Shown here piece by piece: positions 5,252 through 59,606 of a stretch of 62,459 bases of DNA (position 1 is its first letter; the number at the start of each line of letters is the position of its first letter). Both the position numbers and the translations under genes were made by a program. The DNA is taken from IMG/VR virus record IMGVR_UViG_3300042549_003483, positions 1 to 62,459 of that record, one strand, 5' to 3'. The notes beneath the pieces are model-generated. The model was not told where the DNA came from and did not search any database. It worked only from the letters and a program-made list of their open reading frames with translations. The stretch comes from a virus (lineage: Duplodnaviria; Caudoviricetes).

Positions 5252-5799
5252 TCACAAAACATTGTAAATGGTGTAATTGTGAAAAATCTATTGGGGACTT
5301 TCACAAGCACCCCGGAATGCGAGATGGCCGACTAAATAAGTGTAACACTTGCGTTGTATCTGCCGTCAGTGCATGGAGAAAAGCAAAGCCTAACGCACGA
5401 TGTAAAGAGCTTAAAAAATGCGCTGTACGCTATAGGACAGATGCCGACTATAGAAATAAGAAACTGGTGCAGTCTGCCGCATGGGCAGCTCTTAATAAGG
5501 AGCGCATAAGGCTAAAAGCTAAAGAGCGGTGGCACAAGCATCCAAGATACAAAGCCCGTAAAGTCGCATATCGGTTAGGTAAACGTCACGCAACACTACC
5601 AAACATAGGACCAGAAATGTTTAACAGGCCGTATGAGTACGCTGCTCTAATGACCGAATTAACGGGTCAGAAATGGCACGTTGATCATATTGTACCATTA
5701 AACGGCAAGAGCGTTTGCGGTTTGCATGTTCCGTGGAATTTGCGCGCAATTCCCGCAATTGATAACCTACGGAAACATAATCATTTTACTCCGCATTAA
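5248..5799 (+). CDS. Free-standing HNH homing endonuclease
   Basis: [22 protein letters not shown]; overlaps the terL stop. Confidence 0.88.
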
Positions 5800-8349: not shown

Positions 8350-9036
8350 ATGGAAGATTTAGATGCAATTGCTAATCGTCTCCCAGAGTTGCTGCAAGCC
8401 GCAACACTACAGGAACTAGAAGCACTTTATAAAGAGGCTATTGAAGCCGGGGAAGAGACTCAAGCTGGTATGGAACAGCTAATCCTCGCTGAAGTAGAGC
8501 GTCGAGGCGGGCCAGAAGCTTTCCTGCAAGAGCCGACTGCAGAGGAAGAGCCAGCCCCAGAACCAGCACCAGAGCCGGAACCTGCCCCTGCTGCACCTAG
8601 CTTCATGCAGATGCCGCAGCTACCACAAGACCCCAACCCACTGAGTGTTGGTCGGCAGATGGCAGCGGGCACACAGGCTGTGCCAAATACACCTGTCGAA
8701 GCCAATCAGATGCTTGGCGGTAAGCCAATGGGTTTTGCCGAGGGCGGTCTAATGGGCGAGCCGGTTGATATGGTGGAACAGGCCGATGGTGAAATGGAGG
8801 AAGTTCCTCCCGGCTCACTTCCTGACGAAGTTAAGGACGATGTTCCGGCTTTCCTAAGTGATGGTGAGTTTGTACTACCTGCTGATGTGGTTCGTTGGCA
8901 CGGACTAAAATCAATTTTACAGCTACGTTCTGAGGCGAAAGAGGGCATGGCCCAAATGCAAGCCGAAGGACAAATTCAGTCACCTTCGCAACAGGGTCTT
9001 ATGGGTTCTGAATACGAAGATGAAATGGACGACTGA
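8350..9036 (+). CDS. Acidic head-associated protein with FAEGG..LSDGEFV domain
   Basis: RBS ggag; FAEGGLM, DDVPAFLSDGEFVLPADVVRWHG. Confidence 0.7.
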   Translation: MEDLDAIANRLPELLQAATLQELEALYKEAIEAGEETQAGMEQLILAEVERRGGPEAFLQEPTAEEEPAPEPAPEPEPAPAAPSFMQMPQLPQDPNPLSVGRQMAAGTQAVPNTPVEANQMLGGKPMGFAEGGLMGEPVDMVEQADGEMEEVPPGSLPDEVKDDVPAFLSDGEFVLPADVVRWHGLKSILQLRSEAKEGMAQMQAEGQIQSPSQQGLMGSEYEDEMDD

Positions 9037-29780: not shown

Positions 29781-30221
29781 TCAAGGCTTTTTTACCAGAT
29801 CAGTAAGGTTTACCTTGGGATGATCGGCTGGCTTTACTAGCTTTCCATCCTCACGAATAGTACCGTTCTTGATCTTGGCTAGATTGTTCTCATGGATACG
29901 GGCACGAGCAATGCTAACGGAAGAGGAGTCAAAGAACGTAGCAAGGAAGTAGTGCAGAACATACTCTAGGTCGAGAGCTTCCTTTAGAACGTTCTCTGCT
30001 GGCTCGCCAGTATTGACGGCAGTCTCTAGCTCGTTAATCTCCTCATTGATCAGGTTGGCGCAAAGCTCTAGGGCATCTGCGTAGGTCTGGCCAGCGTTAG
30101 CCACACTCAGTTGCCGGGTTACGCCATAGTCGAAGATGTTGCCCTGTTGCCCCTTGGTTTTCGTATGAATGGCCTCAAGGAAGTAGTTGAGATTGTGCTC
30201 AGGCTGCTGGTTGATTAACAT
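29781..30221 (-). CDS. MazG/PRA-PH-like nucleotide pyrophosphohydrolase
   Basis: LINEEINEL..LKEALDLEYV..IHENN.AK..REDGKLVKP. Confidence 0.8.
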   Translation of the reverse strand: MLINQQPEHNLNYFLEAIHTKTKGQQGNIFDYGVTRQLSVANAGQTYADALELCANLINEEINELETAVNTGEPAENVLKEALDLEYVLHYFLATFFDSSSVSIARARIHENNLAKIKNGTIREDGKLVKPADHPKVNLTDLVKKP

Positions 30222-30777
30222 ATAGGTCCCACATTGGATTAAAAAGTCTGTTAAAACGGCGGAGGAACATTTCTTCGGCTTTTGCCGGTTTCCAACACGC
30301 AATAATTGTCATATCGAGAATAGGCTTAACTTTATCTAGGCCCCACGTCGAGGTATCTACTTCTGGTTTTAGATGAAGTACCTCAGTAACAAGCATTCGA
30401 TCATCAATGTTATGCACTGCGTCTGGCATTGGGTATTGAAGACCGAAGTGCTTAAAGATGGCAGCATGCAGCGTCTCTTCGTATTCGGCTAGGCCCGGAA
30501 TGGCGTACTTGATAGGTCGTGGAATATCTCCGATGTAAGCCTCAGAAGCATCATGCATCAAAGCTTCTCGCATGTAACGAGTATCACTGACGTAGAAGCT
30601 GGCCCAATAACTATGTTCAGCTACGGAATAAAACTCAGAACAGTGTCCGTTGAACCGGCACTGCTTTGACAGAGCATTTGCAATGTCACGGATATTGAAC
30701 TCTGACTTGCTGAAATCGCCGGGGTAAAACCGGCGACCCTCACCTAGTGTGAGAAAGCGGGTCGGATCAACCTGCAT
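30199..30777 (-). CDS. HD-domain phosphohydrolase (YfdR-like)
   Basis: RFNGH..YSVAEHS..LMHDASEAYIGD. Confidence 0.88.
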   Translation of the reverse strand: MQVDPTRFLTLGEGRRFYPGDFSKSEFNIRDIANALSKQCRFNGHCSEFYSVAEHSYWASFYVSDTRYMREALMHDASEAYIGDIPRPIKYAIPGLAEYEETLHAAIFKHFGLQYPMPDAVHNIDDRMLVTEVLHLKPEVDTSTWGLDKVKPILDMTIIACWKPAKAEEMFLRRFNRLFNPMWDLYVNQPAA

Positions 30778-31339
30778 CCACCTTCACCCGATCATCGTTG
30801 CCGATCTTGCGCATGGCGTACGTGTAGAGGGCGATTGCATTCCATGCCACTGCAATCATATGGTGTGTCCCTGTCTCGTTGTCAAGGTCCTCACCCTGTG
30901 CCCATGCCCAAGAGTGCCGCTGCATGGACGCAAAGCACTTGCCCCAATCCATACCCCGCTCCCAATTGCGGTCAGCGTACTTTCGTGCGCCCCGCTCGTA
31001 GTGGGCTGCCAGTTCGATCATGGCCTCGGGCGGTACTAGGTCGAACCGAGGCTTGCCGCTGTCGTACCGAAGACCACTGTTAGTGGTTGGGGATGCTGTG
31101 CGAAAGACCTTCCCCGGAGTGTCAGCAGTAAGGATTTTTCTTAGCTCATATTCGGAAATGACAGGAGTGGCAGTAGCGACAGGATCACGAAGCGTAACAG
31201 CATCCTTAGTTGCAGCTACCACATCGAACTTGGCGTTGTTGTGGTCAACCCACTCCGTATAGTCTTCAGGCGGGCCAGAACGGTCTGGATGTAGGTCAAT
31301 CTCATCTTCTTGCATGGTAAGGGAGGTTGGATTAGGCAT
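30767..31339 (-). CDS. dATP/dGTP diphosphohydrolase-domain protein (DUF5664-like)
   Basis: YDSGKPRFDLVP..GARKYADRNWERG..ETGTHH..AWNA. Confidence 0.85.
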   Translation of the reverse strand: MPNPTSLTMQEDEIDLHPDRSGPPEDYTEWVDHNNAKFDVVAATKDAVTLRDPVATATPVISEYELRKILTADTPGKVFRTASPTTNSGLRYDSGKPRFDLVPPEAMIELAAHYERGARKYADRNWERGMDWGKCFASMQRHSWAWAQGEDLDNETGTHHMIAVAWNAIALYTYAMRKIGNDDRVKVDAG

Positions 31340-42943: not shown

Positions 42944-44581
42944 TTACTTCTGGCCGATGCGATCACGGAAGGCAGACAGTTCGTCTTCTAGATTGTTGTT
43001 CTCTTCGATGATGTATCGGTTCTCTTGCAGCAGTTCCATAAGCGTCACTGCCATTTCGTCATACGTCACACACTCACGAACAAGGAAGGCAGTGATGATA
43101 CGCTTCATGGCGACATTGGACACGCCGTCGATAAGCCCGTCTGCGGGCTCCCACTTGGGAACCTTGTTGAGCGGTGTATCGGCAGTAACCTCGTCAAGTG
43201 GAACAACGTTAGTGTCTCGATTAGCGATAGCAGTACGAGTGGTGACGTGGGTGTTAGTCCCAGTCGCCGTACCCGAAAGCTGCACTACGTTCGTACTTCC
43301 GGTTGAGGTAGGTGACGAGGTAGTGCCAGCTACGTTTGTAGGGCGCGAGCCGGTTTTATCCTCCGGGTACATGCCCTTCCACTTGTCCTGCGGGTAGCGA
43401 GAGATGTCATCCTTGAACTCCTTTTCATACCAGTTATCGAAGTCGTGACCATGCACACCCACGCCCCGGTATGTGCCATAGCCGCCATGAAAGGAGTACG
43501 AAGTATCGTTGACATCACGGACAGTGGGTAGCGTAGACCAGTTGACTGACAACAGCGCCGGAATGAAGATTGCCTCTAGCCAGATCAAATCGAAATTTTC
43601 ATTGGTCGTGTGCTCGCTATTGTAACCGCACGAGACATTAGTGCATTCTGGGATCAGGCCAGTATATTCGGCGGTGTCTGTGTAAACACCATGCGATGAT
43701 GGTGCAAACTTAGGTGCCATGTTAGGCGTGTGTGCATTAATCTGATCAGCAAGAGCACTAGCAAACTCATTAGATGCGCACTTACCACCAGACTGATGTG
43801 TAATGATGTCCGTATGTCCGCGACGATCAAAGGCAATCGCACGCTTGATGCCCTTAACCACTTCAGGGCTGCGAGTAGAGATATGCCGAGAGCCGACACC
43901 ACCAGACTCCTCGCCAACGTGGAAGATGTACAGACCCCCCACATTTTCCTTGATCAGCCGGCACATGATGTAGCAGCCAACCTTATCGTCAGCGCCAAGC
44001 CCAGATGGGTTGTAGATTGGCTCACCTACAACCTTGGTCAGAAGCACACCATCACGCTTGACCATCTTGCCATTCTCAATGACGAAGAAGTCAAACTGCT
44101 CGTTGCCCTTGGCGCTGGTACCGTTACGCTTTAGGCTGAAATGCTCGCTGTCTGCAATTTCCTTGGCAAAATCCTTGAGGTCCGTAACCTTGATCTTACG
44201 ATTGGTGTGGACTTCGTGGAAGTACACGTTTGAGTTCTTAGTCGAGCCGTAGATATAGCCCTCGCGCTGCGAATCGCCTGTCGTAATAACAGGGGTGATA
44301 CGACCGGATGCCGCAGACACGGTGTCCATATGTGATGAGAACATCGTCTCATGTGGGCCGTCGCCAACAGTGACGATCAGATTACCGACACTATCCGTAT
44401 TGTAGATGATCTTGTGCGGAAGACGGTCGAGGAAGTGAGTGATGATCTTCTCGACCTTATCCTCACTGTGGCGTGGGCTACCCTGCTGTAGAAGATCATA
44501 CAGAAGATCAGGGATATCCTTACCGCGTACCGCTTCTCGGAAGGAAAGCTGCGTACGGTGCGTAAAGCTGGCGTAAGACAT
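42944..44581 (-). CDS. M20/M28-family zinc peptidase-like protein
   Basis: SHMDT, GADDKVG, GEE, AFDR, C-terminal EH metal ligands; long insert and low-complexity tail. Confidence 0.85.
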   Translation of the reverse strand: MSYASFTHRTQLSFREAVRGKDIPDLLYDLLQQGSPRHSEDKVEKIITHFLDRLPHKIIYNTDSVGNLIVTVGDGPHETMFSSHMDTVSAASGRITPVITTGDSQREGYIYGSTKNSNVYFHEVHTNRKIKVTDLKDFAKEIADSEHFSLKRNGTSAKGNEQFDFFVIENGKMVKRDGVLLTKVVGEPIYNPSGLGADDKVGCYIMCRLIKENVGGLYIFHVGEESGGVGSRHISTRSPEVVKGIKRAIAFDRRGHTDIITHQSGGKCASNEFASALADQINAHTPNMAPKFAPSSHGVYTDTAEYTGLIPECTNVSCGYNSEHTTNENFDLIWLEAIFIPALLSVNWSTLPTVRDVNDTSYSFHGGYGTYRGVGVHGHDFDNWYEKEFKDDISRYPQDKWKGMYPEDKTGSRPTNVAGTTSSPTSTGSTNVVQLSGTATGTNTHVTTRTAIANRDTNVVPLDEVTADTPLNKVPKWEPADGLIDGVSNVAMKRIITAFLVRECVTYDEMAVTLMELLQENRYIIEENNNLEDELSAFRDRIGQK

Positions 44582-46356
44582 TATGCTGCGATCCTTACTT
44601 CGGTTGCAGTGGTGACGGTGGTAAACTCAGGGATAGCAGCAGCAGTAATTACGCCATCCATGGGAGCAAGCCATTCGATCTTGGGGAAAACAATGTCGTT
44701 GCTAACTGGTACAAGCGACATAGGTTCAAACAACGTAGCCGGATCAAACTTCATAGAACGTACACTTTGTAGAGCAACACTTCTGATCCGCGCAGCGTAG
44801 CGGGACATAATACGTCCCCCTCCGTGAGTCATCCTCCTAGTGGCATCTCTGTTTGTGTTGTTAATGCGCACACCAACACGGGTCATATTGTGTTCGCTTA
44901 AGTCTGGCGAAGTATGACGAAATACTACAATGTGAGAAGCGTATGACAGGTCAGCGTACTCATTCTCTTCCATTACCGTTTCTTGAAACGATGTGCAGAT
45001 CGACTCGGCTGCACGACGGTTTGTGAAGAAGTACCCATCTGTGGACTCATAAACATCCGGCGTACGACTGGTCCAAATGGTTGAACCGTCGTTCCGAATT
45101 GCACTGACCAGACCCTCAGCCCGAGCATGCGCTTCCGAACAGAACACCCGATCATCGGTGTCGCTGTAGATTGCGTCATCCGGGTGGAATGCCCCACCAC
45201 AATGGTCGCAGGTAAGTCGTACGTAATGGCGACTGTTAATGTAGCCAGTCGTGGAATCTGTGTTGTTGTAGTTACCTTCCCGATAACGCTCGCAGTGTGT
45301 GACGTGAAACTCCTTCGTAGCCTGATCAAACTTAATATCGAAGGAGCCGGCGATGTTATCGAAGTACGGCATGGGTGCGTGCCACTCATCGCGAGTAGCG
45401 TGTTTGAGACCCGGCATCGTAAAGCTGCACCCACGAGCGAAGCTGTCGGTAAGCTGGGTCGTACCAGCCTCTTCCAGCATCTTGACCAACTTCGTAGACC
45501 ACATATCACCGCCCGGATATACACGACCGTAGCGCCAGCCCTTCCTCGTTTCATAGACGATGCAGCGGGCTACGACACGGTTGCCACGAGTGATAAACGC
45601 ACCCCGAGTGTGGGGGTGATATGCGAAGAACGAAGTTGGGCAGTGCTTGTTGGTAAGCAGCGTGTGCCAGTGTTCCACATTATGGCGGGGGTCGCCGTCC
45701 CCACGAACGAACATGCACGAGCCGGGACCGGAACCGTACATGATCAGGAAGTCTTCCGGCTTGTCTGCATAGGTGATTTCCAGCGGACGACGCATGTCTT
45801 CGATGTACTGAGACATGTTGCGCACTAGATGATCACCAATACCCAGTTCCTTGACGTTAGAGAAGCGAGACACGGCACGGGCGATAGTCATCTCCTCATA
45901 CCGCTTGAGCCGACGCCATGCACGGTTAGTAGTGGCCCATGCCTGTGCCCGACGTGGGTCAGCCAGATCGTCCTTGAGTTTTGTGAGGAAGTCGGGGAGG
46001 GCCTCGTCGTAGCAGAAGAACGGCGTGCAGAACTTGTAGATATCGTCACTTGCCGTACCCGTCATGCTGATGTTTGTGAATACACGAACCGTGTCCGGTT
46101 TGGACCCGAACATGATGGGGGCGGTGAAAGCGAAGCGAGTGTTCTGCAAATTCTCACAGGCATACCGGCGAAGCTCCAGAAAATCCTTGGAGACAAACCG
46201 GACAATGCGCGCTGCCATGGCAAGCGGCGCGCTGTTGATGTTGAAGTCATAGCCCCCGTTGGCCATGACCTCATCCGGATTCTGCCCCTGCTCCTTAATG
46301 GCAGCGCGCAGACAATTGATTTGTTCTCGTGTGCTCAGTGTGAACATGCGAGTCAT
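44581..46356 (-). CDS. Large hypothetical protein with SCM motif and Zn-ribbon-like segment
   Basis: GPGSCM, VARCIVY, GRVY, PYFD, CDHC..FCSE.H; coupled to the peptidase. Confidence 0.7.
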   Translation of the reverse strand: MTRMFTLSTREQINCLRAAIKEQGQNPDEVMANGGYDFNINSAPLAMAARIVRFVSKDFLELRRYACENLQNTRFAFTAPIMFGSKPDTVRVFTNISMTGTASDDIYKFCTPFFCYDEALPDFLTKLKDDLADPRRAQAWATTNRAWRRLKRYEEMTIARAVSRFSNVKELGIGDHLVRNMSQYIEDMRRPLEITYADKPEDFLIMYGSGPGSCMFVRGDGDPRHNVEHWHTLLTNKHCPTSFFAYHPHTRGAFITRGNRVVARCIVYETRKGWRYGRVYPGGDMWSTKLVKMLEEAGTTQLTDSFARGCSFTMPGLKHATRDEWHAPMPYFDNIAGSFDIKFDQATKEFHVTHCERYREGNYNNTDSTTGYINSRHYVRLTCDHCGGAFHPDDAIYSDTDDRVFCSEAHARAEGLVSAIRNDGSTIWTSRTPDVYESTDGYFFTNRRAAESICTSFQETVMEENEYADLSYASHIVVFRHTSPDLSEHNMTRVGVRINNTNRDATRRMTHGGGRIMSRYAARIRSVALQSVRSMKFDPATLFEPMSLVPVSNDIVFPKIEWLAPMDGVITAAAIPEFTTVTTATEVRIAA

Positions 46357-47424: not shown

Positions 47425-48321
47425 TCAAGCCGCCTTACGACTGTAGACCTTTTGGAACCAGTCGAGTTTCGCTTGATCGAAATTCGCATTAGTGTTGCGC
47501 ATGGAACCTTCGGTAAGGAACATGCGGATAGCCTTGTCCTTACCAATGATGCTGTTCTCTTTGTTATCCTCCCGTGGACCCCAGCCTAGGCGCAGCATGA
47601 AGTTTAGAAGGGCATCAGGAGAGTAACCGCGATCACGATAATCAAGGAGAGAAGCAGCACCATCACGCTTACTCATCTTCTTCTTGTCTTTGAAGATCAG
47701 ACCGACATGGGCGAACTTAGGTGGTGGCGCACCATGTAGTTGATCACGGTCATCACACTTCTGAATAGCTGACCAGATAGCTAGCTGCTTGGCCGTGTTA
47801 GTAATGTGGTCGGTGCCACGAATAATAAAATTAACACTCATCAAGTAGTCATCAATAACACTGGCGAACTGGTACGTCGGCTCACCTAGTTTGTCACCGC
47901 CGCGTAGCAGTACGGTACGCCCGTTAATCTGCTCGATATTGGTGTCGGTAATAGGGATTCTATCGGCAACTTCATCACGCCATGAGCGAGGCATGAAGTC
48001 CTGCCAGTTGAGGATGATTGCGCCATTGTCGGCACGGAACGCAAAGCCATGTTCCAGAAGACGCTCGGCTTCCGCCTTGTAGATGGACGTGCGCTGAGAC
48101 TGGCGCTCAAAGCGATCCCAATCCAGCCCAAGCCACTTCAGCCCATCATAGATAGGTTGGATGGCCTCAGGCTTATTACGCTCAGTGTCCGTGTCATCCA
48201 AACGAAGGATGAACTGGCCACCTGTAGCCTTGGCAGCAAGCCAGCAGAAGTATGCTGTGCGTGCCGTGCCGAAGTGCATCATCCCGGTAGGGGACGGGGC
48301 GATGCGAGTAACATATTCCAT
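47425..48321 (-). CDS. Glutamyl-tRNA synthetase catalytic-domain paralog (no anticodon-binding domain)
   Basis: RIAPSPTG, HFGT (HIGH), LRLDDTD.ER, RQSQR, TYQFASVIDD, IIRG.DH, KMSKR, ANFDQAKLDW then stop; 298 aa. Confidence 0.92.
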   Translation of the reverse strand: MEYVTRIAPSPTGMMHFGTARTAYFCWLAAKATGGQFILRLDDTDTERNKPEAIQPIYDGLKWLGLDWDRFERQSQRTSIYKAEAERLLEHGFAFRADNGAIILNWQDFMPRSWRDEVADRIPITDTNIEQINGRTVLLRGGDKLGEPTYQFASVIDDYLMSVNFIIRGTDHITNTAKQLAIWSAIQKCDDRDQLHGAPPPKFAHVGLIFKDKKKMSKRDGAASLLDYRDRGYSPDALLNFMLRLGWGPREDNKENSIIGKDKAIRMFLTEGSMRNTNANFDQAKLDWFQKVYSRKAA

Positions 48322-48331
48322 GTGAGCACTC

Positions 48332-48688
48332 CTATGCTGCACGAAGGTTCTTATGAAGATACTTAACTGCTAGGTCTGACCTAGACATAGCTAGCTTTCT
48401 AAGCGAATTTCGTCTTACAATAACAAGGTATGGACCGGCTGTGGTAATGCCACTACCATGGGTTAGGTACGCGTCCATACCATTTGAAAAAACTTTATCT
48501 AGTGTAAAGGCTTGAAAGCTATAGTCGTCGAACAAGACTCTACCTGTGACGAACATAGTTCTGTCCGACCAGCGATCAATAATGCTGTAACTAGCCTCTA
48601 GGGCTGATCGCACATGGGTATGGGAAAAGACTTCCGCCCCTGCTACGTCGTATGGTAAGCCCATCGTCTCAGTAATGGGGTAGATCAT
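48332..48688 (-). CDS. Hypothetical protein
   Basis: 118 aa in operon. Confidence 0.5.
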   Translation of the reverse strand: MIYPITETMGLPYDVAGAEVFSHTHVRSALEASYSIIDRWSDRTMFVTGRVLFDDYSFQAFTLDKVFSNGMDAYLTHGSGITTAGPYLVIVRRNSLRKLAMSRSDLAVKYLHKNLRAA

Positions 48689-48942: not shown

Positions 48943-49359
48943 TCAGAAAGCTGCAGCAAAGCTGCCATCGGCTACGTTCCACACCTCGGGCTTGTCATCC
49001 GTGGTGTAGAATACGCGCCGAACACCCGCTTGACGAATGATCGCTTGGCAAACAGTGCAGGGTTTGGCAAGGGCTACAGAACCGTCGCGCTTGACCCGTG
49101 ATACAGCCAGATCAACGCCATGGCTGGCATCGAATCCGGCATGTAGAATGCAGCTAGACTCAGCGTGTAGAAACGGCCACGGACTGTATCTAGCCAGCTT
49201 TGGATGAGTTTTGAGTTCATTATGTTTTGCCGATATTACATGGTTGCCAGAGAAAAGAACGGCACCAACCCGGAAGTTAGTGCCGTTGCGACCGCCTACG
49301 CCGGGACCAGATAAAGCTACCGCTTTAGCTGCTTCCAGCATTCGCCCGATTCGGGCCAT
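48943..49359 (-). CDS. Zn-dependent cytidine/adenosine deaminase-fold protein
   Basis: VGAVL, HAE, AKPCTVC, VFYT. Confidence 0.88.
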   Translation of the reverse strand: MARIGRMLEAAKAVALSGPGVGGRNGTNFRVGAVLFSGNHVISAKHNELKTHPKLARYSPWPFLHAESSCILHAGFDASHGVDLAVSRVKRDGSVALAKPCTVCQAIIRQAGVRRVFYTTDDKPEVWNVADGSFAAAF

Positions 49360-49637: not shown

Positions 49638-50573
49638 TCAAGGGGTGATTTCCCCATTCTCAAGCCAATGCTTGTACGTCTCGGGAAAATTCTTGATTGC
49701 CATCCGCATAAGGTCTTTGTGAAACAGGCGGTAAAGCATGTTCTTGATATTTGTCTCCTCCTCCTCAGAGATATCAGTGACGATACTCTTCATAAGAGGG
49801 CCGATATCACGAACAGTGCCAGTCAGTGTGCCGTCCTCACGAGCACGCTGGATTGCCTTACGCCAGCGAGCCTGACTGTTGTAAGCAGCACCGATCTGCT
49901 CTAGGGCAGAAGGATTGGACTGCTTCCAACCGTCAACGTGCTTCTCCTTGAACTCAGCGCTGACCAGCTTAGCGAAGGTGCCGAGGTAGTCCTTGCCGTT
50001 GAAGTGGCAGGGACGGCTATAGTTTTTGACGACCACACCTTCCATGGTCGCTTTGCCTAGTGCTGACTCCTTACCCATGAAGGAGTGAAGCCACTCACGC
50101 CCCTCAACTACATCAGGGGCAGGGCCTTGGTAAAGCACAGGCACAGGCTCGCAGCCTAGACGCTCAGCCCATTCTGTACGATCAGCCGCATGGCTTTCGG
50201 GAGTTGTGTAGACAGGGCGCTCAGTAAGGTAGGTAATCCCAAATAGCATGAAGTGTCCTTTGGGGACACGTGCGTAGTCCAGCGTATTGTGCTTGGGTGA
50301 TTGGAGATATTCGCCGTGAAAGATGGCGTTGCTTGGCAGCTTGTCTTCGATGCTCTTCACATACTCCTTGGCAGCGTTGAACATCTTATTGGAGTCACCG
50401 TGGAATACATTAGCGTTCTTGGAACGCATGTATACAATGCCATCCAGCTTGCCGAAGTTGAACTGGCTGCCGTCGATCTTCTCCGTTACTTCAACAACGG
50501 CATCTTTAAGCATTCCGTGAGTAGGATGATCACCCCACGAGAATAGCTTTTGAAAACCTTGGATCATTGCCAT
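49638..50573 (-). CDS. RNA ligase (Rnl2-like)
   Basis: EKIDGSQ (motif I), HGEY, FMLFG, EGVVVK, AKLVS..FKE; helical C-terminal domain. Confidence 0.85.
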   Translation of the reverse strand: MAMIQGFQKLFSWGDHPTHGMLKDAVVEVTEKIDGSQFNFGKLDGIVYMRSKNANVFHGDSNKMFNAAKEYVKSIEDKLPSNAIFHGEYLQSPKHNTLDYARVPKGHFMLFGITYLTERPVYTTPESHAADRTEWAERLGCEPVPVLYQGPAPDVVEGREWLHSFMGKESALGKATMEGVVVKNYSRPCHFNGKDYLGTFAKLVSAEFKEKHVDGWKQSNPSALEQIGAAYNSQARWRKAIQRAREDGTLTGTVRDIGPLMKSIVTDISEEEETNIKNMLYRLFHKDLMRMAIKNFPETYKHWLENGEITP

Positions 50574-59524: not shown

Positions 59525-59606
59525 GGATGGGCTGTCACTGGCGAGACTAGCTGACTGTAAATCAGTGGCTTTGGCTGTGGTGGTTCGACTCCATCCCCAT
59601 CCACCA
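59525..59606 (+). tRNA. tRNA-Tyr (GUA)
   Basis: Acceptor GGATGGG/CCCATCC, anticodon arm GCTGA-CTGTAAA-TCAGT, long variable arm, TTCGACT loop, encoded ACCA. Confidence 0.92.

Follow-up and report, generated by a model that had tools for sequence, protein, structure and literature searches.

A short glutamyl-tRNA synthetase gene lacking the anticodon-binding domain in a podophage genome, and the tRNA-Glu-type genes beside its relatives

The synthetase gene and its product

The viral record IMGVR_UViG_3300042549_003483, which is complete, ends in direct terminal repeats, and was analyzed over its entire 62,459 nucleotides (nt) (hereafter the window), carries on its minus strand, at 47425-48321, an intact gene for a short protein of the glutamyl-tRNA synthetase (GluRS) family that lacks the anticodon-binding domain; in relatives, this gene is linked to genes of tRNA-Glu type. 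The longest open frame (47425..48342, minus strand) starts at a GTG and would encode 305 amino acids (aa). The ATG at 48321 opens a frame of 298 aa without internal stops, and because this ATG is preceded by an AGGAG, which overlaps the stop codon of an upstream 118-aa open reading frame (ORF), 47425-48321 is the likely gene. Its features, all on the minus strand, are as follows.

47425..48321, minus strand: GluRS core gene (298-aa ORF and translation), with the stop codon at 47425-47427
48329..48333, minus strand: AGGAG resembling a Shine-Dalgarno sequence, 7 nt before the ATG at 48321, read from the sequence
48265..48306, minus strand: beta-1 Arg6 and the HIGH-type motif HFGT (aa 6-19), from translation and conservation
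48196..48198, minus strand: Asp42 codon, a signature of the short clade, from column statistics
47914..48033, minus strand: remnant of the acceptor-arm-binding insertion (aa 97-136), from alignments to E. coli GluRS, GltX, and GluQ-RS references
47818..47874, minus strand: Tyr150, Asp158, and Arg168 (aa 150-168), spaced identically to T. thermophilus Tyr187, Asp195, and Arg205
47665..47679, minus strand: KMSKR (aa 215-219), the class I KMSKS-type ATP loop, from alignment A1

Translation places RIAPSPTG at aa 6-13, HFGT at 16-19, LRLDDTD at 39-45, TYQFASVIDD at 149-158, IIRGTDH at 166-172, and KMSKR at 215-219, and the C-terminus follows 10 residues past ANFDQAKLDW. Pfam recognized PF00749 alone (class I Glu/Gln synthetase catalytic domain; E 9.6e-59), and the anticodon-binding domain (Anticodon_2, PF19269, domains IV-V) was found neither in the protein nor elsewhere in the window. 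GluRS domains I-III comprise the Rossmann core, the acceptor-arm insertion, and the D-arm-binding domain (PMC12088422), and the predicted parts of the 298-aa protein are a Rossmann fold, a shortened acceptor-arm insertion, and a D-arm-binding domain III. The protein stops at the domain III/IV boundary as drawn in PMC3927822, where the N-terminal part of T. thermophilus GluRS (1-322) is set against the anticodon-binding part. In the insertion, residues 97-136 lie opposite residues 98-169 of the E. coli GluRS chain 8i9i and are thus shorter by about 32 residues; the CxC...C block of full GltX and GluQ-RS is missing in the multiple alignment, and the only two cysteines of the protein (C26 and C188) both fall outside the insertion region. 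Translation, Pfam, and alignments therefore bear out an earlier sequence-only reading of the gene, which had described a GluRS catalytic core with all of the motifs named above, no anticodon domain, and no Cys-containing Zn insertion. According to PMC4381286, the zinc domain (pZBD) is deleted in 7 of 212 bacterial GluRSs, contact with GatB has been proposed as its core role, and its deletion is compatible with tRNA-Glu charging in natural, functional GluRSs. Since such enzymes exist, the loss of the zinc domain is no argument against tRNA charging. The AlphaFold2 model built from 120 homologs had a mean predicted local distance difference test (pLDDT) score of 95.8, and Foldseek matched this predicted structure best to bacterial GluRSs (template modeling [TM] score 0.83-0.87 on the query), with the GluQ-RS 4a91 at 0.75.

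The residues expected to bind glutamate and ATP are retained. In T. thermophilus GluRS, the glutamate-specific pocket consists of a strictly conserved Arg5-Asp195-Arg205 network together with Tyr187, as described in PMC2978374, which also assigns to Arg5, the counterpart of Arg6 here, the role of binding the glutamate side chain. In the 120-sequence alignment A1, Y150, D157, D158, R168, and G169 were invariant, as were K218 and R219 of the ATP loop, where K215 and S217 were at least 90% conserved. The first five of these residues, along with R6, P9-G13, H16, and G18, were also conserved at 90% or more both in full-length GltX and in the short clade, the group of similarly truncated proteins defined below. 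Because R6/Y150/D158/R168, the HIGH motif, and KMSKR are conserved in the family, activation of L-glutamate by the 298-aa protein is a reasonable inference from its sequence. Column statistics over 71 short-clade rows and 92 GltX rows additionally revealed two clade-specific substitutions: position 42 is Asp in 99% of the short clade versus Glu in 96% of full-length GltX, and position 207 is Gly in the short clade versus Pro in 90% of GltX. The window protein carries both D42 and G207.

Family placement and distribution of the short form

Among NCBIfam models, the top match was TIGR00464 (gltX_bact) at 267.1 bits, which is below the equivalog cut-off of 289.95 and ends at profile position 318 of 470. 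The GluQ-RS models (TIGR03838 and NF004312-NF004315) scored 81-143 bits against cut-offs of 250-453, about half of the gltX_bact score, the best values being 143.4 against 250 and 138.7 against 276.7. The search of solved structures gave 114-184 bits for bacterial GluRSs, with E. coli GluRS at 183.6 and YadB at 63.9. The FastTree phylogeny (199 rows) placed the window protein within an 85-row clade with 95% support, in which 80 of the 85 rows were 340 aa or shorter, and the IQ-TREE phylogeny (64 rows) recovered a 37-row short clade on a long stem with 99% support; in both trees, the six GluQ-RS references lay across a 98% branch. Moreover, ten positions conserved in the short clade and GltX, H172 included, were present in at most one of these six references. 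Profile scores, structure matches, and two trees thus place the protein among bacterial GltX rather than inside ordinary GluQ-RS, an outcome that the sequence-only reading had left open, and, as judged from sequence, the gene is an independently truncated offshoot of bacterial GltX.

Proteins of the short clade measure approximately 280-325 aa. Five longer members (P0122, P0123, P0124, P0118, and P0134) consist of PF00749 with low-complexity tails only, and domain fusions were accordingly dropped as a functional clue; the full-length tree neighbors of the clade carry Anticodon_2. At E <= 1e-3, a word-indexed protein search matched 2682 proteins; the 120 best ones listed share 55-99% identity with the window protein and are 282-388 aa long, many of them on 62-70 kb contigs. 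An exhaustive search of representatives yielded about 45 clusters of 260-340 aa that aligned in one stretch and ranked ahead of full-length GltX, which aligns in two stretches owing to its insertion. The Methylacidiphilum GluRS 8jpv and representatives of 410-450 aa such as P0165 and P0173 also aligned to the query unbroken.

Two further short or shortened forms were observed. A pair of short GluRSs of 286-291 aa (L030/L031:10001-10876 and P0190) sits at the base of the clade in FastTree and, in IQ-TREE, apart from it beside pZBD-less full-length GltX without strong support; this pair may represent a second independent truncation, and a tRNA-Glu-like RNA also lies near the L030 synthetase gene. 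The homolog at L029:9968-10660, from a 332-kb record, has an open frame of 230 aa that ends within the KMSK region and may be a frameshifted copy.

The short form is almost confined to viral contigs. IMG/VR provided 40 loci, and among the 38 that could be evaluated, 30 encode a form of 340 aa or less and 8 a form of at least 472 aa. The short-form records include some of podophage size (the L007 record of 68 kb, 100% complete, and the L026 record of 63 kb) and very large ones of 230-608 kb, five of which were tested: three had a terminase match and four were at least 93% complete by CheckV. Two records of 54-59 kb were only 11-12% complete. Among the 50,697 phage records of INPHARED, 41 matched the synthetase, with nothing closer than 37% and all below 60% identity. 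In species-representative bacterial genomes, the best 80 loci among the matches listed were 33-40% identical. The 401 alphaproteobacterial genomes gave six matches at E <= 1e-30 (33-47% identical), all with open frames of at least 343 aa, and contained no member of the short clade. The metagenome scan returned mostly ordinary GltX among the matches listed and added at least five complete short forms (L145-L149). The sole bacterial replicon with a true member was the Methylobacterium indicum plasmid pVL1_2, whose protein is 62.7% identical and whose neighborhood is phage-like (RusA, YqaJ recombinase, SSB, helicase, and rows of small same-strand ORFs), such that pVL1_2 looks like a phage or phage-plasmid. 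This replicon (L225; NZ_AP024147.1 59002-89874) is a circular, non-mobilizable plasmid of 128 kb that also encodes a toprim protein, a radical SAM protein, a MiaA-like tRNA isopentenyltransferase, and genes for tRNA-Trp, -Tyr, and -Met. Searches of open-access papers and bioRxiv turned up no account of a phage GluRS clade without the anticodon domain, nor of such enzymes paired with tRNA-Glu-like RNAs.

tRNA-Glu-type genes and other neighbors

Our ARAGORN scan of 30 distinct short-form loci, from which duplicates had been removed, identified 111 tRNAs, 23 of which were tRNA-Glu, and at least one ARAGORN-called tRNA-Glu was present in 9 of the 30 loci. On the same strand and within 1 kb upstream of the synthetase gene, 18 of 26 tRNAs were Glu (UUC and CUC) and 2 of 26 were Asp; the nearest upstream tRNA was Glu in 5 of the 11 loci having one within 1 kb. 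In five loci, arrays of three to four tRNA-Glu genes (UUC and CUC) end 4-511 nt before the start codon, and in four others (L009, L037, L148, and L149), a tRNA-Glu lies within 0.8-3.2 kb of the synthetase gene. The divergent arrays, which stand directly upstream of the gene in huge-phage records, are located as follows.

L010:9515-9768, tRNA-Glu array
L012:8887-9142, tRNA-Glu array
L013:9753-9988, tRNA-Glu array
L014:9413-9752, tRNA-Glu array
L028:9572-9978, tRNA-Glu array

The tRNA-Glu-linked loci are spread over several subclades, and the label corresponds to five changes on the tree. Of the 23 phage tRNA-Glu found, 22 were parsed; 15 of these had U11-A24, U13-G22, and a 4-nt variable loop, which, beside the anticodon, are major identity elements of E. 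coli tRNA-Glu (PMC9976931), and 16 had G1-C72. The survey of protein neighbors (clustering of 1188 ORFs from 38 IMG/VR loci and the window, and a relaxed comparison of the three genes on either side) rejected the idea of a conserved protein partner: synteny existed only within phage backbones, and no neighbor was common across lineages. The gene-neighborhood survey in phages that the sequence-only reading had proposed thus uncovered tRNA linkage, and it is this linkage, not the protein neighbors, that is conserved across lineages. Genes for tRNA-Arg(UCU/CCU) follow downstream in L009, L010, L013, and L014. Other translation oddities near synthetase genes of large viral records (L021/L023:2842-3193 and 8640-8715; L016:9533-9616; L036:16376-16458; L032:20119-20192) comprise a transfer-messenger RNA (tmRNA), a UAA-suppressor-type tRNA, tRNAs called by ARAGORN with four-base anticodons, and a CUA ("Pyl") tRNA.

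The closer relatives of the window revealed a second kind of linked RNA. L007 contains a 92-nt gene, matched by the Rfam tRNA model and overlooked by ARAGORN, that combines the acceptor stem, D arm, 4-nt variable loop, and T arm of a tRNA-Glu with an encoded GCCA end and carries about 36 nt in place of the 17-nt anticodon arm. Combining a pattern scan, a covariance model, and folding, we found the same design three times in L026, once in L045, once in L030, and three times in pVL1_2, where two of the three copies have inserts of 80-90 nt. The positions of these tRNA-Glu-bodied RNAs are as follows.

L007:1494-1585, tRNA-Glu-bodied RNA
L026:5263-5337, 5463-5538, and 5544-5634, tRNA-Glu-bodied RNAs
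L045:1848-1936, tRNA-Glu-bodied RNA
L030:3910-3980, tRNA-Glu-bodied RNA
L228:1501-1581 and 1586-1723, tRNA-Glu-bodied RNAs
L229:1501-1650, tRNA-Glu-bodied RNA

Their common features are an acceptor stem of 7 base pairs (bp), a D arm of the form GUCUAG..AGGAC, a variable loop of 4 nt, and a T arm, and CCA is encoded in every copy except that of L030. Hairpins of 5-8 bp with assorted loops, or the 80-90-nt inserts, take the place of the anticodon arm. ARAGORN overlooks these RNAs or calls them Thr, Tyr, Pro, or Ser, and two of the three L026 copies were mislabeled as Thr and Tyr. An apparent co-occurrence with tRNA-Tyr, based on calls in the window, L026, and pVL1_2, was discarded when the L026 "Tyr" turned out to be a tRNA-Glu-bodied RNA, and short introns were rejected by eye, as no consistent anticodon loop could be restored. 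The 23 rows of alignment A2 were picked by a pattern that requires U11-A24 and, opposite U13, a purine (G or A) at position 22. In this alignment, 99.5% of the 368 cells of the acceptor, D, and T stems are paired, and 12 of 16 pairs show compensatory changes. These counts use a corrected structure. In the covariance model R1, the D-stem and anticodon-stem columns were misregistered (26% and 40% pairing), and with two helices out of register, R1 in effect captures sequence together with the acceptor and T stems. In L007 and L026, the tRNA-Glu-like RNAs stand just upstream of a gene pair encoding a 591-aa protein and a peptidase, and in L045 just upstream of the synthetase gene. Matches of tRNA-Glu type scoring at least 57 bits were present in 11 of 18 other whole records of relatives. 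The five cultured HMO-2011-type phages, which are not among the 41 INPHARED records matching the synthetase, had no tRNA or tRNA-Glu-like match (0/5).

The window itself has a terminase, portal/adaptor, and capsid resembling those of HMO-2011-type podophages. The terminase shares 58% identity with its counterpart in Pelagibacter phage HTVC033P and 47-52% with the terminases of Roseobacter CRP phages, Puniceispirillum phage HMO-2011, Rhizobium phage RHph_N3_19, and Sinorhizobium phage phiM6. PHROGs recognized the portal/adaptor, capsid, DNA polymerase, helicase, and ribonucleotide reductase, and Pfam recognized ThyX, PhoH, an HD-domain protein, and a MazZ-like diphosphohydrolase. The minus-strand block of the synthetase gene also holds a Zn-ribbon protein, three ORFs without matches, and the first four features below.

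49638-50573, minus strand: Rnl2-type RNA ligase (PF09414, phrog_548), four genes upstream of the synthetase gene
48943-49359, minus strand: small deaminase, in the same block as the synthetase gene
44581-46356, minus strand: 591-aa protein with an "SCM" motif, in the same block
42944-44581, minus strand: peptidase (phrog_4191), in the same block
59525-59606, plus strand: tRNA-Tyr(GTA), the sole tRNA of the window

The nearest cultured-phage matches of the ligase are in Bacillus and Staphylococcus phages (27-31% identity). The 591-aa protein matched nothing in Pfam, in PHROGs, or, by tblastn, in the INPHARED records; in the Atlas, it fell into large viral hypothetical clusters only, with a weak PcfJ lead, and it showed no likeness to the 421-aa neighbor in L020. 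It is present in four short-GluRS podophage loci (the window, L007, L026, and L045), always adjoining the peptidase. The position of the synthetase gene relative to this pair varies among relatives, and most family members, namely those of huge phages, are without it. The tRNA-Tyr, which the sequence-only reading had correctly given as the only tRNA of the phage, scored 34.4 bits on the Rfam tRNA model and 36.4 on the tRNA-Sec model, under the cut-off of the latter. An HD-domain (YfbR-like) protein at 30199-30777 and a protein with an N-terminal MazZ-like dATP/dGTP diphosphohydrolase domain (PF18909) at 30767-31339 adjoin on the minus strand, a pairing reminiscent of Z-genome phages. A link to 7-deazaguanine or Z-base DNA chemistry was nevertheless rejected, as the window has neither a tRNA-guanine transglycosylase (TGT) nor a PurZ-type adenylosuccinate synthetase. 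An anticodon domain supplied in trans was likewise discarded, PF19269 being absent from the window and from five large viral records.

Possible roles and comparison with known systems

We consider it somewhat more probable than all other explanations together, with a probability of roughly 55%, that the gene encodes an anticodon-blind GluRS that acts on tRNA-Glu bodies via their acceptor and D arms. The enzyme would be a glutamate-specific class I synthetase cut down to GluRS domains I-III, which would activate L-glutamate with ATP and then move it to the 3' end of RNAs with a tRNA-Glu body. Recognition would rely on the "augmented D helix" together with the acceptor arm, and the anticodon would go unread because there is no anticodon-binding domain. 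In huge phages, the likely substrates would be the phage tRNA-Glu(UUC) and tRNA-Glu(CUC) arrays just upstream of the gene, and in the closer podophage relatives, the tRNA-Glu-like RNAs with other hairpins instead of the anticodon arm. The window phage encodes neither RNA, so that host tRNA-Glu would be the substrate here, charged without the help of host GltX and whatever the state of the anticodon or its modification; in an alphaproteobacterial host using the transamidation route, tRNA-Gln might also serve as a substrate. The phage could benefit through independence from a shut-down host GltX, tolerance of unmodified or altered anticodons, or simple supply. Of the four alternatives offered by the sequence-only reading, an anticodon-blind synthetase is the best supported, by the tRNA-Glu arrays of relatives and by the anticodon-less RNAs sharing the gene block, although the data point to tRNA-Glu-type bodies as the substrate and not to the damaged or non-cognate tRNA that it suggested.

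Several observations weigh against an anticodon-blind GluRS. The window contains no tRNA-Glu or tRNA-Glu-like RNA, its best match to R1 with filters off being the tRNA-Tyr at 15.6 bits, and the strongest evidence is thus association in relatives. Within that evidence, the nine tRNA-Glu-linked loci amount to about six independent cases because L009, L010, L013, and L014 share one backbone. Huge phages are, moreover, tRNA-rich, so that a tRNA-Glu anywhere in a record is weak evidence and only adjacency counts. The pattern by which A2 rows were picked forced U11-A24 and U13-purine22, and these pairs are consequently not independent evidence. For E. coli GluRS, the anticodon bases are strong identity elements, and efficiency falls 100-fold when the U34 modification is lost (PMC9976931); an enzyme without the domain may therefore be slow. 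Finally, the clade departs from GltX at two otherwise conserved sites, with D42 in place of Glu and G207 in place of Pro.

A bolder possibility, which we regard as rather unlikely, is a private, anticodon-free glutamyl carrier, in which the domain-less GluRS would be paired with tRNA-Glu-bodied RNAs lacking the anticodon loop; such RNAs are seen with an encoded CCA end in L007, L026, L045, and Methylobacterium pVL1_2 and without that end in L030. Because RNAs of this kind cannot decode, any copies charged with Glu would have a role outside the ribosome. They might act as the glutamyl donor for a transferase, perhaps the co-occurring 591-aa protein with the peptidase, or as a mimic of charged tRNA acting on host sensing of uncharged tRNA-Glu or on tRNA-directed defenses. 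The enzyme and the tRNA-Glu(UUC+CUC) of huge phages would then form a self-contained pair, and the window phage would be a member that lost, or never had, its RNA partner. A glutamyl donor for the "SCM"/peptidase pair had already been suggested by the sequence-only reading; the position of the synthetase gene relative to this pair shifts among relatives, but tRNA-Glu-like RNAs lie just upstream of the pair in two.

It is less probable still that the protein is an amino-acid ligase with a non-RNA acceptor, which would make Glu-AMP and pass the glutamate to a protein or metabolite, perhaps in connection with the 591-aa protein and the peptidase. Truncated synthetase paralogs with non-tRNA acceptors are described in PMC9437257 and provide precedents, the models being PoxA/EpmA (a LysRS core acting on EF-P) and MshC (a CysRS core acting on a small molecule). 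The recurrence of the 591-aa protein and peptidase in four short-GluRS podophage loci, together with the lack of a match to the 591-aa protein in the 50,697 phage records, is in keeping with such a ligase, as are the clade's own D42 and G207 at otherwise conserved positions of the active-site region. However, the shifting gene position and the lack of the pair in most family members argue against a functional tie, no neighbor within three genes is conserved across lineages, and the long members show low-complexity tails only. A non-RNA acceptor also gives the RNA linkage no role, and GltX-specific residues outside the Glu/ATP pocket, including those of domain III, stay conserved.

We place little weight on a decoy or sponge, akin to the decoy or back-up against HipA-type kinases suggested by the sequence-only reading, for which catalysis would be dispensable and which would absorb a GltX-directed host toxin such as a HipA-type kinase or sequester tRNA-Glu. 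Kinases of this type act on GltX by phosphorylating the Ser of its KxSKR loop. The conserved Ser of the KMSKR loop and the lack of a tRNA-Glu of its own in the window phage would suit this role, and a relation between HipA and GltX is on record in PMC10627512. Yet the whole Glu/ATP pocket is conserved, which a decoy would not need, and none of the neighborhoods surveyed showed a link to a kinase or toxin.

Slightly less credible again is a GluQ-RS-like modifier that would activate glutamate without tRNA and, like YadB, esterify queuosine-34 (Q34), either in tRNA-Asp or in the phage tRNA-Tyr(GUA). The protein does resemble YadB in architecture (about 300 aa, no anticodon domain), the predicted fold matches GluQ-RS 4a91, and the sole tRNA of the window is Tyr-GUA, a Q34-class tRNA. 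The Zn motif is also lacking in 15 of 61 GluQ-RS, according to PMC4381286. The version of this idea put forward in the sequence-only reading, modification of the tRNA-Tyr anticodon, is not supported, given the low GluQ-RS model scores, the 98% separation in two trees, the ten GltX-shared residues absent from GluQ-RS references, and the lack of a TGT in the window. The tRNAs upstream of the gene in relatives are, in addition, mostly Glu, with few Asp, and not Tyr, and the "tRNA-Tyr" of L026 is really a tRNA-Glu-bodied RNA. A decaying, functionless fragment of a captured host gltX, which the sequence-only reading had also raised and which two missing GltX parts and a score under the gltX_bact cut-off might suggest, can be practically dismissed, given that the 280-325-aa form recurs in more than 100 proteins (55-99% identity) and in 30 of 38 IMG/VR loci, and that the clade is supported in both trees, with invariant catalytic residues, a ribosome-binding site, and no internal stops.

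If an anticodon-blind GluRS is indeed encoded here, it would constitute a second, independently evolved, virus-borne GluRS lineage without an anticodon domain beside GluQ-RS, and nature would offer a test of the extent to which glutamate identity can depend on recognition of the acceptor and D arms alone. Phages of 60 kb to 600 kb would then bring their own glutamate-charging step, some with their own tRNA-Glu set, which would bear on phage escape from host translation control exerted by GltX-directed toxins, anticodon nucleases, or modification-dependent charging. The anticodon-less tRNA-Glu-like RNAs, if charged, would be a new kind of non-decoding aminoacyl carrier, and the synthetase/RNA pair is a candidate natural scaffold for orthogonal synthetase/tRNA systems. 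Plasmid pVL1_2 of Methylobacterium indicum VL1 offers a cultured handle.

Among known systems, GltX (TIGR00464; E. coli 8i9i, T. elongatus 2cfo, T. thermophilus 1j09) is the nearest by sequence and fold, sharing with the short clade the HIGH and KMSKR motifs, the Glu-binding Arg/Tyr/Asp/Arg network, and domain III. Unlike GltX, the short clade has no domains IV-V and no pZBD, scores below the cut-off, carries D42 and G207, and is almost exclusively viral. The synthetase genes of huge phages, reportedly described by Al-Shayeb et al. (2020), are likewise phage-borne translation genes beside tRNA arrays, and several short-clade members sit on viral records of 230-608 kb. GluQ-RS/YadB (TIGR03838; 1nzj, 4a91) is likewise a glutamate-using catalytic core of about 300 aa without an anticodon domain, but it is a separate lineage whose truncation was independent. 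In the review PMC9437257, YadB is the sole GluRS paralog listed and acts on Q34 of tRNA-Asp, whereas the genes linked to the short clade are of tRNA-Glu type. The pZBD-deleted GluRSs of Methylacidiphilum, Akkermansia, phytoplasmas, and Neorickettsia (GluRS1), described in PMC4381286, share the same deletion with the short clade; these cellular housekeeping enzymes retain the anticodon-binding domain (Anticodon_2 in P0165 and P0173), which the short clade does not. The engineered C-truncated E. coli GluRS of Dubois et al. (2009, Biochemistry 48:6012) is a laboratory construct without the distal domains that is, according to the title of that paper, specific for tRNA-Glu, and, going by that title, it would serve by analogy as a precedent for the mechanism proposed here.

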